Below, in pieces: positions 23,740-25,792 of a stretch of 64,000 nt of DNA. The notes under the pieces are model-generated. The model worked only from the letters and a program-made list of their open reading frames with translations, was not told the origin of the DNA and did no database searches. Location of the stretch: contig NC_134471.1 in the NCBI RefSeq assembly GCF_964194025.1, positions 50,716,001-50,780,000 of the forward strand, given 5' to 3'. This DNA is from Convolutriloba macropyga (Eukaryota). Within the stretch, counting starts at the first letter, position 1, and the number at the start of each line of letters is the position of its first letter. The translations under genes and the position numbers were made by a program.

Positions 23740-23844
23740 TTAGATGAGGAGAAGGATGAGGACTTCTAGGAGGAGGCCAACAGAGAGGGTGACGATAAAG
23801 GAGAGAAGAAGAAGAATTGGGACGTAAATGGGGTGCATTTGCAT
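23740..23844 (-). CDS. 34-aa hydrophobic transmembrane micropeptide (absent from the ORF track)
   Basis: Manual translation MQMHPIYVPILLLLSFIVTLSVGLLLEVLILLLI*. ATG lies 3 nt after the RING ORF stop. Confidence 0.55.
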   Translation of the reverse strand: MQMHPIYVPILLLLSFIVTLSVGLLLEVLILLLI

Positions 23845-23847
23845 TGT

Positions 23848-24283
23848 TTAACAGCTTTCCGACCAAACGTCGTGAGGGTTGATCTTCTTCAGACAAATGG
23901 GGCAATTATGTTTATCTTGGGCACAGGGTTTGCACACAAAATGTCCAAGGTCCTGGTGACATTTTATGTGCGGGTGAGTTGAGGAGGTGACACATTTCTT
24001 TAGTTGATTGCAGCAGAAGCATCGGTAGTAAAAACTAATGGATACGGTGTAAATATGGCGGAGGCAAAGGGGGCAATTTGGTTGGGAAGAATGTTTGAAG
24101 AGGTTAGTTCTGCAATCAGTGCAAACTAGATGGGGGGGGTTGGTCTCCGTCCGAAGGGTGCAGTTTTTTCCAGCATGATGTAATTCGTAAACAAATGGGA
24201 CATTCATCACGATACTCGACAACAGGGGGGCGTGATGAATTTTGGAGGGGAAAAACTATTCGAAAGGAAAAACAATTTCCCAT
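23848..24283 (-). CDS. Tandem RING-finger protein with N-terminal MGNCFS motif (one frameshift in this copy)
   Basis: ATG at 24283 gives MGNCFSF...ECPICLRITSCW. A 1-nt shift in the A6 or C8 run (~24130-24170) joins HLVCTDC...CPLC and a second unit CFCC...C...H..CKPC...CPIC. Confidence 0.7.
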
Positions 24284-24284
24284 T

Positions 24285-24551
24285 TTAAAAATCTCGGGAT
24301 GGATAGATAGTTTCGTTATTAAGGTTATGTGGGGGATTTGATTGACCTAATTTTAATACGAGCGACTTTTCTATTTTCAAAAAGAAATTCCAATGGGGTG
24401 AGAGGGGAGTTAGGGTTTTCATTAAATTTTGTTGGGTGTCAATATTAACATAATAAATTTCTAAGGAAGGGGAGGTATAGTTGTCAGTCTCGGTAAAGGA
24501 ACGTTTAATGTCAGTTATTCTGACTAAATGCTGGTTGAGGTGAAAAATCAT
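24285..24551 (-). CDS. Small accessory protein, 88 aa (paralog group B)
   Basis: Aligns with 25030-25260 and 24554-24790 (MxF...LV...RSF...PSL...SPxWNFF). Confidence 0.75.
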   Translation of the reverse strand: MIFHLNQHLVRITDIKRSFTETDNYTSPSLEIYYVNIDTQQNLMKTLTPLSPHWNFFLKIEKSLVLKLGQSNPPHNLNNETIYPSRDF

Positions 24552-24553
24552 AA

Positions 24554-24790
24554 TTACAATAATTTATTGGATTCTGTTGAGATACTTCTAGCACATTTAG
24601 ACTCGTTATCGAGGAGGTAAAAGAAATAATCCCAGTAAATTGAAGTGGGGTAGACTGAGAGGGTTGATGTTTTCTGGGTTTTCACGTTCTTCAAGTTTAC
24701 TAAAATAAATGCTTGAAGGGAAGGTTCAGTTTCAAAGGTTTTCACGAAGCTGCAAATCTCAACTAGTTCTTGGTTCAAAAGGAAAAACAT
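24554..24790 (-). CDS. Small accessory protein, 78 aa (paralog group B)
   Basis: MFFLLNQELV...PSL...SIYWDYFF. Spacers of 2-3 nt to neighbouring ORFs. Confidence 0.75.
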   Translation of the reverse strand: MFFLLNQELVEICSFVKTFETEPSLQAFILVNLKNVKTQKTSTLSVYPTSIYWDYFFYLLDNESKCARSISTESNKLL

Positions 24791-24793
24791 GAC

Positions 24794-25030
24794 TTAAAAT
24801 AAAGGAATAGGATACTTAATTGTTAATTCTGCGTTAGAAAAGAAGGATAGGAATAGGGCTATTTCGAGTATTTGGGGGTGACCAATTTTTAAGGTTAGAT
24901 AGTGATTTAAAATGCTGTGGGGTTGTCGAATATAAATAATAAATGAGTTATGGGTTGTGGATAATCCAAGGATAATATATTTTATGTTATTTAATTTAAG
25001 GGTAAGGGATCTATTCTGTATATTAATCAT
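24794..25030 (-). CDS. Small accessory protein, 78 aa
   Basis: TAATG stop/start overlap with the upstream ORF. SFIIYIR...HP pattern resembles the other small ORFs. Confidence 0.65.
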   Translation of the reverse strand: MINIQNRSLTLKLNNIKYIILGLSTTHNSFIIYIRQPHSILNHYLTLKIGHPQILEIALFLSFFSNAELTIKYPIPLF

Positions 25031-25260
25031 TACCAGTTGGAGATGTCAATGGGAAGCTCGTCTAAATTTTGCTCTGAAAGCATTAAAAAAAAGTTCCAAT
25101 AAGGGGAAAAAGCTGGTATTTTTATTGAACCTTCGTCCCAAGAGTCTACAAAATCGAACAAAACTTCTAGAGTGGGAGTTACTTGATAGGGAAAATGGAT
25201 AGTAAAGGATCGATTAATTTGATAAGGTCTTACTAAACTGCGTTGGTAGTAAAAGTACAT
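25030..25260 (-). CDS. Small accessory protein, 76 aa (paralog group B)
   Basis: MYFYYQRSLV...RSFT...PTLEV...SPYWNFFL. Confidence 0.75.
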   Translation of the reverse strand: MYFYYQRSLVRPYQINRSFTIHFPYQVTPTLEVLFDFVDSWDEGSIKIPAFSPYWNFFLMLSEQNLDELPIDISNW

Positions 25261-25430
25261 TCCAATACGTTATTCTCGTGCTGATGGAGCTCGAAGTTTT
25301 TGCAATGTACTGTAAATACGTTTGGTTCTCTAAAATGTTTAAGAAATAAAGCAAAATTAGTTAAAACGTATAAAATAGCAAATAAAATAATTAGTTCCCG
25401 AAGGGACTTTTGAAGATCGAGGTGCATCAT
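25233..25430 (-). CDS. Small membrane-anchored accessory protein, 65 aa
   Basis: Hydrophobic segment LIILFAILYVLTNFALFL and two Cys. TAA-A-ATG junction with the previous ORF. Confidence 0.6.
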   Translation of the reverse strand: MMHLDLQKSLRELIILFAILYVLTNFALFLKHFREPNVFTVHCKNFELHQHENNVLECTFTTNAV

Positions 25431-25431
25431 T

Positions 25432-25698
25432 TTATAAAAGAAAGTGGATGTTGCTTCCTAAATCTAGTAGACCATATTCACAATCAAGTAAAAATTCCTT
25501 AAGAGTATAAAATTTTTCGTGGTCTGAATAAATTAATATGTCTACTAAGTCAGAAAATTTGGGTGCGCTAACTTTTAAATGCACTAAGTTTTCATAAGCG
25601 GGTGTAAAAGAGTAATATATATGTCCGTAAAATTCGTGAAACTTAATAAATAAACCTTTATGGTACTCGGATACAAAAAGATCATTAAAGTTTTGCAT
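25432..25698 (-). CDS. Small accessory protein, 88 aa
   Basis: First ORF after a candidate branch point and acceptor (CCTAAC-TGTTTCAG, 25726-25713). Confidence 0.65.
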   Translation of the reverse strand: MQNFNDLFVSEYHKGLFIKFHEFYGHIYYSFTPAYENLVHLKVSAPKFSDLVDILIYSDHEKFYTLKEFLLDCEYGLLDLGSNIHFLL

Positions 25699-25792
25699 CT
25701 CAGATCATAATGCTGAAACAGTTAGGTTTAAACTAATAAGAGTTGGTGAAATGTGATTAATTAAGTATAAAAAGACAAATTGGATGACTGAA

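Follow-up and report, generated by a model that had tools for sequence, protein, structure and literature searches.

The element and its genes

The window analysed here, a stretch of 64 kb in all from an animal-like genome, carries on its minus strand an LTR retrotransposon of 18.1 kb with 13 predicted extra ORFs, in two cassettes plus ORF323, beyond gag, pol and env. The preliminary description of this DNA had pointed to a cassette of ORFs joined stop to start, and the cassette is borne out, but the env-carrying LTR retrotransposon around it had been overlooked. Judged by its domain order and Pfam families, the element is a Ty3/gypsy LTR retrotransposon (Metaviridae-like). In the list below the roles of the LTR motifs are putative, and the acceptor-like sites rest on an assumed matrix.

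20921..39065, minus strand: LTR retrotransposon, recognised by paired LTRs, gag, pol, env and accessory ORFs
38132..39065, minus strand: 5' LTR, 934 nt, matched to the 3' LTR
38657, minus strand: TATA-like box in the 5' LTR
38590, 38483 and 38427, minus strand: three donor-like GTAAG motifs in the 5' LTR
38162, minus strand: AATAAA in the 5' LTR
~38130, minus strand: PBS-like, TGG-starting site (TGGTGCG...) just after the 5' LTR
36028..38131, minus strand: leader, 2.1 kb, strongly AUG-poor
34816..36027, minus strand: 5' accessory cassette (ORFs A, B, C, D), upstream of gag
36027-35767, minus strand: A, 86 aa
35770-35441, minus strand: B, 109 aa, ATGA overlap with A
35352-35128, minus strand: C, 74 aa
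35052-34816, minus strand: D, 78 aa
33365..34657, minus strand: gag, 430 aa (PF03732, E=4e-6; PF19259 weak)
28578..33374, minus strand: pol (RVT_1, RT_RNaseH, Integrase_p58_C and SH3_Tf2-1 on separate pieces)
28202, minus strand: strong acceptor-like site of env
25793..28129, minus strand: env, 778 aa, class III fusion-glycoprotein type (PF24664, E=4.5e-42)
23394, minus strand: strong acceptor-like AG of ORF323
22374..23345, minus strand: ORF323, with disordered Q/H-rich N-terminus, conserved middle and C-terminal coiled coil
20921..21855, minus strand: 3' LTR, 935 nt, AATAAA at 20951

The two LTRs are 99.7% identical, and the 4-nt ATAT flanks match provided that the end of the LTR is placed one base within the aligned repeat; the purine tract is short. 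The leader has 11 ATG where 29 are expected. Along the element the Pfam domains are ordered as gag and then, on the pieces of pol, RT-RNaseH-integrase; pol is split over several frames in this copy by stops and frameshifts. The third ORF, after pol, is env, which encodes a class III fusogen whose transmembrane segment lies at 648-666; the Atlas score is 0.96 for the same family as the Pfam match, and PDB sequences gave no match. The single match of one scan of bacterial/archaeal genomes was a pol fragment of 3.3 kb that lacks the cassette, and no Rfam family reached the gathering score in the whole window.

The ATGA overlap of A and B at 35770-35767, noted earlier, is present in the sequence. 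The gap between A and B is -4 nt, and those of B to C and C to D are 88 and 75 nt. C and D are paralogues of each other (z=23.6), and A probably belongs to the same family (A/D z=4.1); against Pfam, A-D gave nothing credible. Acceptor-like AGs were found in the spacers preceding A, C and D, and the 29-nt ATG-free span ahead of B contains no AG. ORF323 has 25 relatives at 38-99% identity and is conserved across subfamilies. It has no Pfam family, its best Atlas score is 0.79, and its structure model is poor (pLDDT 54.5); the fold search with it was dominated by the coiled coil.

The eight ORFs of the 3' cassette

25700..25727, minus strand: region of an acceptor-like site, AG at 25713 (score -0.1, top 7% of 946 AG)
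25708-25700, minus strand: 2-codon uORF, ending 1 nt before o1
25432..25698, minus strand: o1, 88 aa, no known family, has relatives
25233..25430, minus strand: o2, 65 aa, one predicted membrane segment (12-30; hydropathy 2.29)
25030..25260, minus strand: o3, 76 aa, paralogue of o6 (o3/o6 z=13.8)
24794..25030, minus strand: o4, 78 aa, TAATG overlap with o3; N-terminus found in P0085
24554..24790, minus strand: o5, 78 aa, paralogue of o6 (o5/o6 z=10.8)
24285..24551, minus strand: o6, 88 aa, predicted four-stranded sheet plus helix (model pLDDT ~90, residues 1-60)
23848..24283, minus strand: o7, tandem RING-like zinc-finger gene, from its relatives
23740..23844, minus strand: o8, 34-aa hydrophobic peptide (hydropathy 2.84)

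Eleven of the 21 relatives of o1 are full length (87-88 aa), as are 15 of the 31 o6-type matches; o3 has four copies of 75-77 aa among 50 matches, three of the nine relatives of o5 are 78 aa, and o2 is present in fusion proteins of other copies. The ORFs o3, o5 and o6 are paralogues of ~30% identity aligned at Met1, and the accessory genes arose partly by tandem duplication. In this copy o7 is frameshifted, between ~24200 and ~24120; its 14 relatives at 35-47% identity include several that are intact at 130-141 aa (35-40% identity), and the relative P0027 matches zf-C3HC4_3 (E=3e-6). The N-terminal MG of o7 may direct myristoylation. The least certain gene of the eight is o8. Of its 35 codons, 24 have T as the second base, and its frame is fused to o7 in P0022, P0024 and P0026, and loosely in P0028. 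By the Met1-aligned paralogues, the relatives of o7 and the full-length o1 and o6 in other copies, the ORFs act as genes, and the paralogy, together with the conserved Cys/His in the o7 relatives, shows long coding selection.

Nothing credible was found for o1-o6 in Pfam. In fold searches none of the matches to the o6 model was significant (Foldseek E>=0.059 in PDB, >=0.023 in BFVD), and the best one, a non-significant lead, was EF-P domain I (VIA Z 5.6, rmsd 1.8, 52 aligned). Kinship of o1, o4 and o6 with the A/C/D family was also considered and is unsupported (hhalign probability <1%).

The stop-start chain

Every junction position in the preliminary description was recovered on the minus strand. 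The gaps are +1 nt from the uORF to o1, +1 from o1 to o2, -28 from o2 to o3 and -1 from o3 to o4 (TAATG), followed by +3, +2, +1 and +3 for o4 to o5, o5 to o6, o6 to o7 and o7 to o8. Stop and start are thus within -1 to +3 nt at six of the seven gene junctions, the exception being o2 to o3, and the stop is TAA at all six. With a chain defined as ORFs of at least 30 aa coupled within -30 to +3 nt, the longest chain is 7, whereas chains in 1500 dinucleotide shuffles were never longer than 3 (0/1500 reach 7), and among 124 sliding windows on both strands, chains of at least 3 occurred only in those overlapping the cassette. Of the 227 stops elsewhere in the 64 kb, 37 are accompanied by an ATG at -4 to +3, and against this background six tight junctions of seven give a binomial p=1e-4. 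The eight-ORF chain is real and beyond chance.

Coupling is confined to the 3' cassette and to A and B. Elsewhere the spacers are 75-158 nt in the 5' cassette, and ORF323 is preceded by 394 nt; the spacers of C, D, gag, env and ORF323 are all within 75-448 nt. In this copy the chain breaks at o7, because the frame of the ATG at 24283 (55 codons) is not that of the stop at 23848. The relatives of o7 join both pieces into one frameshifted zinc-finger gene, and the eight genes first counted therefore stand, but not the unbroken chain in this copy. Five fusion proteins of damaged copies, 56-85% identical over the matched stretches, all fit a stop at -1/+1 nt; they were chosen by eye among 71 matches, their source copies are closely related, and the background is 28% compatible for +1 and 55% for any spacing. 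The compatible spacing of o5 and o6 is 1 nt in P0037 as compared to 2 nt here, which implies that the spacer drifts but stays tight.

Splice acceptor-like sites

The acceptor matrix was assumed and not trained on the host; when 114 of the 159 plus-strand segments were scanned against Pfam, no additional host exon to train it on came up. There are 946 AG sites in the element and 78 in the cassette. The idea that the whole chain stands behind one splice acceptor is not confirmed, since 10 of the 78 cassette AGs score >=0 under this matrix and the proposed site at 25713 scores -0.1. The sites preceding o3, o4 and o5 equal or beat it:

25330, minus strand: acceptor-like AG upstream of o3
25074, minus strand: strong acceptor-like AG upstream of o4, inside Phe/Leu codons
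24829 and 24793, minus strand: two acceptor-like AGs upstream of o5

If a uORF of 2-3 codons is tolerated, sites equal to 25713 are also found for o2 (25524, 0.4) and o6 (24769, -0.1), and splicing alone may therefore reach most genes. Only 11 of the 946 AGs score >=4, and a gene start is the first downstream ATG for five of them, as compared to 80 of all 946 (p=0.0012); two of the five, those of o4 and o5, are within the cassette. When the upstream ORF was recoded synonymously, the best clean acceptor gave p=0.036 (o3), 0.028 (o4) and 0.037 (o8), but 0.17 (o5), 0.57 (o2), 0.39 (o6) and 0.43 (o7), with a combined Fisher value of 0.012. The genes o2, o6, o7 and o8 have no clean site that reaches the level found for genes preceded by spacers. 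The cassette is pyrimidine-rich, which counts against the acceptor-based reading, as do the Phe/Leu codons around the o4 site.

Reinitiation signals and AUG content

The TURBS of viral termination-reinitiation is a purine-UGGGA in a paired element upstream of the junction (PMC11921876), with stop and start at most ~20 nt apart (PMC10275272). The spacing here is of this class, with o2 to o3 at -28, but no junction has the motif upstream, and the mechanism of caliciviruses and influenza B, to which the chain had been likened, is thus unsupported. Within the cassette purine-TGGGA occurs once, at the o7 start, which is 437 nt away from o8, and the TGGGA at ~25140 and ~24634 are preceded by a pyrimidine and read Trp-Asp. 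Shared k-mers upstream of the junctions are AT-rich ones only, and no stable RNA structure was detected near the junctions (folding z-scores -1.8 to +2.0).

In o1-o6 there are 6 out-of-frame ATGs where 10.9 are expected (p=0.027) and 8 non-start ATGs where 14.1 are expected (p=0.06), and internal Met occurs 3 times in 467 residues. With 7 non-start ATGs, o7-o8 are not AUG-poor. Counted from the uORF, 23 ATGs lie upstream of o8, and at each of the nine starts position -3 is a purine.

How the chain may be translated

Production of several proteins from one mRNA is rare in animal cells, and the stop-start packing suggests that it happens here. It is quite possible, though somewhat short of probable, that the accessory genes are expressed from nested spliced RNAs combined with short-range, stop-coupled reinitiation. 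Transcription from the 5' LTR would give nested, 3'-coterminal RNAs in which one LTR donor is joined to alternative acceptors before o1, inside o2, o3 and o4, and perhaps others. Each RNA would be polycistronic and entered at a different gene. After the first cistron, ribosomes would restart at an AUG 0-3 nt from the stop, without TURBS, and the next one to three proteins would be made at lower yield, giving an effective depth of 2-4 and not 8. The 2-codon uORF might sort ribosomes between o1 and later starts. For reinitiation without help, upstream ORFs of 65-88 codons are on the long side, which speaks against this reading, as does the lack of any cis-signal at the junctions. From the earlier model this keeps the polycistronic mRNA with stop-coupled reinitiation, which best accounts for the spacing because the rest of the element, with its spacers and 2.1-kb leader, is not compact; the single acceptor and the depth of eight are given up.

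Splicing alone, with each ORF having its own acceptor in the preceding gene and being read as the first long ORF, is rather unlikely. It agrees with sites at about 0 or above before o3, o4 and o5, with those of o2 and o6 across short uORFs, with the enrichment of acceptors at gene starts element-wide and with the absence of TURBS. The contacts would then be a by-product of tandem duplication and spacer loss, the stop giving an A at -3, but this leaves the tight gaps unexplained against the spacers of C, D, gag, env and ORF323, and B, o7 and o8 have no good clean site. Translation of all eight genes from one spliced RNA by serial reinitiation, as first proposed, is improbable. Acceptor-like sites inside the cassette outscore 25713, and at the viral efficiency of 3-20% per step (PMC10275272) seven steps leave <= ~1e-5, so that there would be almost nothing of the last protein. 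The model would need a TAV-like trans-activator or a poorly recycling host ribosome state. What speaks for it is the chain, unbroken when o7 is taken as one gene, the TAA at every tight junction, the mild AUG scarcity of o1-o6, and the element-free 80S reinitiation in yeast that declines with spacer length (PMC11952965). The conserved ORF323 is a positional candidate for the TAV-like role, being the last gene with its own acceptor and a coiled coil, but Pfam, Atlas and a fold search with its poor model (pLDDT 54) detected no likeness to TAV, and no TAV homologue was detected in the element. It is similarly doubtful that a serial, TURBS-free reading of an eight-gene mRNA is switched on by ORF323 or by the beta proteins o3/o5/o6, for which domain I of EF-P/eIF5A is the best, non-significant fold match; if true, CaMV TAV would have an animal equivalent, and animal cells a general means of polycistronic translation.

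RTBV and the badnaviruses are translated by leaky scanning along AUG-poor RNA. The few non-start ATGs and internal Met of o1-o6 are in line with this, but the purine at -3 in 9/9 starts, the ATGs ahead of o8 and the AUG content of o7-o8 are not, and stop-start contact is not predicted by it; we regard it as very unlikely. Even less credit can be given to an operon resolved by spliced-leader trans-splicing, which had been the other suggestion. Ciona operons also lack intercistronic DNA (PMC1488885), acceptor-like sites are present, and there is an AG at the stop in o4 to o5, but of the seven gene junctions this one alone has an AG separating the stop from the start, and at two junctions the ORFs overlap, so that cutting there would ruin a coding sequence. 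It also seems highly improbable that internal promoters make short RNAs, or that the downstream ORFs are no longer translated. The Tor3b/4b env RNA of Oikopleura does start internally (PMC4402516), and pol and o7 are broken in this copy. Against these stand the genes 170-270 nt apart without spacers and the long coding selection seen in the Met1-aligned paralogues and the conserved Cys/His of the o7 relatives.

Elements of the Ty3/gypsy type that carry env are described with three genes. The present one has 13 more, among them a family of duplicated small proteins, a RING-like protein and membrane peptides, and its complexity is thus on par with any retroelement among those compared. The seven serial TURBS-free junctions are a natural set on which to test what signal lets animal ribosomes restart after long ORFs, and how far this can go. 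A coupling rule that is compact and element-free, or a trans-activator, could also serve multi-gene expression. Should splicing account for everything, the element would still be an unusually gene-rich retrotransposon.

Comparison with known systems

Neither the element nor such a chain in an LTR retrotransposon was found in the titles and abstract openings of the papers that the literature searches listed; Repbase and the supplements of PMC13524379 may list the element. The errantiviruses with HSV/gB-type env described by Chary and Hayashi (PMC13524379) share the gag-pol-env order, the class III env, near-identical LTRs and multicopy relatives, but differ from the 18 kb length and the 13 extra ORFs in two cassettes seen here. 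By word search, the main text of that paper does not mention accessory genes, small ORFs or splicing, and its LTR step left out pairs >14 kb apart.

Other complex retroelements also have small extra genes. The accessory genes of the fish foamy-like ERVs (PMC5512871) and of the Drosophila MDG1 group with its sORF1/sORF2 (PMC11952523) include paralogous pairs (acc1a/b) and small membrane proteins, comparable to o2 and o8, although o2 and o8 have no N-terminal MG. The two groups have five and two accessory genes respectively, as compared to 13 here, and the parts of these papers drawn on describe no stop-start chain.

Junctions of UAAUG, AUGA or a few nt are known from caliciviruses, influenza B and rhabdovirus accessory genes (PMC10275272, PMC11921876, PMC4334499), and in rhabdoviruses small accessory genes are duplicated as well. 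The TURBS examples drawn on are two-ORF junctions with purine-UGGGA, whereas here there are seven in series and none with the motif. The non-LTR retrotransposon SART1 has UAAUG coupling without TURBS, but at one junction and with a required downstream RNA structure (cited in PMC10275272), and none is stable here (z -1.8 to +1.2). A precedent for splicing together with reinitiation is CaMV, which uses an acceptor within its ORF II and also reinitiates across short overlaps (PMC5902531). The Caulimoviridae are, in contrast, plant viruses, non-integrating and TAV-dependent, with core genes among the coupled ones, but they resemble the present element in being reverse-transcribing, in having long ORFs with short overlaps or fused stop-start, in having an acceptor within an ORF, and in having a last gene with its own RNA (PMC5902531).

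The stop-start chain

The preliminary description claimed that eight small ORFs (o1-o8, the cassette) are coupled stop to start behind one acceptor on the minus strand, 23740..25726. The acceptor-like site, the two-codon uORF before o1 and every junction listed are present in the minus-strand sequence as it gave them. The gaps are +1 nt from the uORF to o1, +1 from o1 to o2, −28 to o3, −1 to o4, +3 to o5, +2 to o6, +1 to o7 and +3 to o8. When ORFs of at least 30 aa coupled within −30 to +3 nt were counted, the longest chain was 7, as compared to a maximum of 3 in 1500 dinucleotide shuffles, and chains of 3 or more occurred in none of 124 sliding windows except those that overlap the cassette. 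Stops elsewhere have an ATG at −4 to +3 in 37 cases out of 227, and against this background the six tight junctions out of seven give p=1e-4. The stop-start pattern is real.

The element carrying the cassette

The cassette lies inside an LTR element of 18.1 kb (39065-20921), with LTRs 99.7% identical, and the insertion is therefore young. The order is LTR, a 2.1-kb leader, four small ORFs (A-D), gag, pol, env, the cassette, a last gene (ORF323) and the 3' LTR. The leader is poor in AUG (11 ATG observed vs 29 expected), and at 36000-37400 (minus) it has a long low-complexity stretch with many AAATT and CCAAAA words. Pol has RT, RNase H and integrase and is broken in this copy, and env belongs to the class III family PF24664. 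A bacterial MAG contig (L001, 1029-3272), probably stray eukaryotic DNA, carries a pol 69% identical to that of the element; this pol has a macro domain (PF01661, E=1e-4) between the protease region and RT, and no match to this domain was found among the scanned pol pieces of the element.

Other features of the window are:

39915-47460, minus: BEL/Pao element with LTRs at 39920-40712 and 46668-47460; DUF1759, RT, Peptidase_A17, rve, DUF5641
about 18350-18809 and 1-730: related LTR pieces, older
5579-6043, plus: exon-like ORF with a match to the BT1 folate/biopterin transporters (E=9e-8), then a donor-like site
16179-16868, plus: RT fragment, then a weak GIY-YIG match (E=0.018)
56173-59189: tandem repeat, degenerate, of about 1.33 kb at 74% identity
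63516-63998: copy related to the 1.33-kb repeat, 7.3 kb away

The BEL/Pao element lies just past the cassette-bearing gypsy element, and its LTRs are 97.6% identical. No further exon after the BT1-like ORF was found among 114 segments scanned. The sequence at 16179-16868 suggests a Penelope-like element.

Evidence that the ORFs are genes

The ORFs behave as genes. Close copies could remain open by chance, and deep paralogy is therefore the stronger argument: o3, o5 and o6 belong to one paralogue family (o3/o6 z=13.8, o5/o6 z=10.8, o3/o5 only z=2.6) and their Met1 positions align. The four small ORFs upstream of gag (34816-36027, minus) include a second paralogue family, which comprises C, D and probably A. 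Eleven of the 21 relatives of o1 are full length. The o3/o5/o6 profile gave 50 hits, and among these 15/31 o6-type, 3/9 o5-type and 4/4 o3-type proteins are full length; the remaining ones are damaged copies. There is one o6 cluster of 45 members, at 86% identity. The fold predicted for o6 is four strands and a helix, and searches with this model gave no significant match; EF-P/eIF5A domain I tops both PDB fold searches, below significance (Z 5.6; E 0.06; o6 at 24285-24551, minus).

The frames from 24283 and 24207 belong together as two fragments of a single tandem RING-like gene, o7. Its relatives, 130-141 aa at 35-40% identity, retain the Cys/His pattern. Four of them (P0027, P0029, P0031, P0033) terminate right past the second finger, where the window copy has its stop. 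There are relatives of this protein (23848-24283, minus) that start with MG. One 203-aa relative (P0034, E=8e-4) has a different composition and may derive from a different type of host or virus. Both o2 and o8 have a single hydrophobic segment. The least certain gene of the cassette is o8. Of 14 representatives, three or four carry it as a fusion with o7, and as it is in frame with o7 it could possibly be made by readthrough. For ORF323 (22374..23345, minus) there are 25 relatives at 38-99% identity, and its C-terminal part forms a coiled coil.

Coupling

The element is not compact elsewhere, so packing alone is disfavoured as an explanation of the junctions. From 71 hits, five fusion proteins (damaged copies) that run in frame into the Met of the next ORF were chosen by eye. 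Four other junction-spanning proteins (P0021, P0064, P0067, P0072) were excluded for a downstream ORF out of frame, a mutated start or the 28-nt overlap. A stop at −1 or +1 nt would fit all five fusion proteins, against a background of 28% (+1) or 55% (any), and at o5/o6 one copy fits +1 as compared to +2 in the window. Since the copies are close, this supports functional coupling only weakly. There is a mild scarcity of AUG in o1-o6 (two tests, p=0.027 and 0.06), which is absent in o7-o8.

TURBS, a reinitiation motif, requires purine-UGGGA (PMC11921876, available part). A check for TURBS found none, the only purine-UGGGA of the cassette being at the o7 start, and no motif common to the junction flanks or stable RNA structure was found there. 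Upstream of gag, the overlap of A and B at 35770 is present as described (−4 nt, ATGA), and the 29-nt ATG-free span before B has no AG. As a single test of coupling, this pair is the cleanest.

One acceptor or several

All 946 AG of the element were scored with an assumed, untrained matrix. Eleven score at least 4, and for five the first downstream ATG is a gene start (gag, env, o4, o5, ORF323), against 80/946 overall (p=0.0012 under this matrix). With the same untrained matrix, a clean site of at least −0.1 precedes all seven starts that follow a spacer (A, C, D, gag, env, uORF/o1, ORF323), the weakest being that of the preliminary description, and only o3, o4 and o5 among the eight coupled starts. 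As compared to synonymous recoding, internal sites reach p<0.05 in 3/7 (o3, o4, o8; Fisher p=0.012). Speaking against this, the o2 and o6 sites match the described acceptor in score if a uORF of 2-3 codons is allowed, and 10/78 AG in the pyrimidine-rich cassette score at least 0. The candidate sites before o3, o4 and o5 make a single acceptor doubtful, but which sites serve cannot be told from sequence alone.

Expression of the cassette

Tentatively, and at a little less than an even chance, the best fit is a CaMV-like hybrid, for which we infer donors, acceptors, translation and coupling. The genes, their spacing, the context and the absence of TURBS are shown by the analysis. An LTR donor would be joined to alternative acceptors, giving nested spliced RNAs, and each of these would be read for two to four cistrons, with reinitiation after the first. 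CaMV makes its polycistron shorter by splicing to an acceptor within ORF II and reads what is left by reinitiation (PMC5902531, available part).

The main rivals of this hybrid are splicing alone, which would account for the expression of all ORFs and is rather unlikely, and serial reinitiation driven by an activator, which is quite improbable. Reinitiation in caliciviruses is 3-20% efficient, according to the accessible part of PMC10275272, which over seven steps leaves at most about 1e-5, and an eight-deep chain therefore needs an activator; neither the depth nor the signal assumed in the preliminary description finds support in the sequence. An operon resolved by trans-splicing, also proposed, requires a boundary AG even if intercistronic DNA is lacking (PMC1488885, available part); only one of the seven gene junctions has it. 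Leaky scanning along the cassette RNA would have to pass 23 ATGs before o8, and every gene start has a purine at −3.

Comparison with known systems

In the literature listings we found no description of the element or of such a chain; subscription papers, Repbase and supplements may hold one. The architecture would fit the gB-type errantiviruses as given in the available part of PMC13524379, from which the 13 extra ORFs are a departure. Going by the type of element, the host would be an animal. The nearest complex retroelements, in the accessible parts of their descriptions, have five accessory genes (PMC5512871), two small ORFs (PMC11952523), one extra ORF3 (PMC5408684) or giant polyproteins (PMC6431247). 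Rhabdovirus accessory pairs use TURBS (PMC4334499, available part), whereas the cassette is without it. Each ingredient is known already, but not the combination and the depth.
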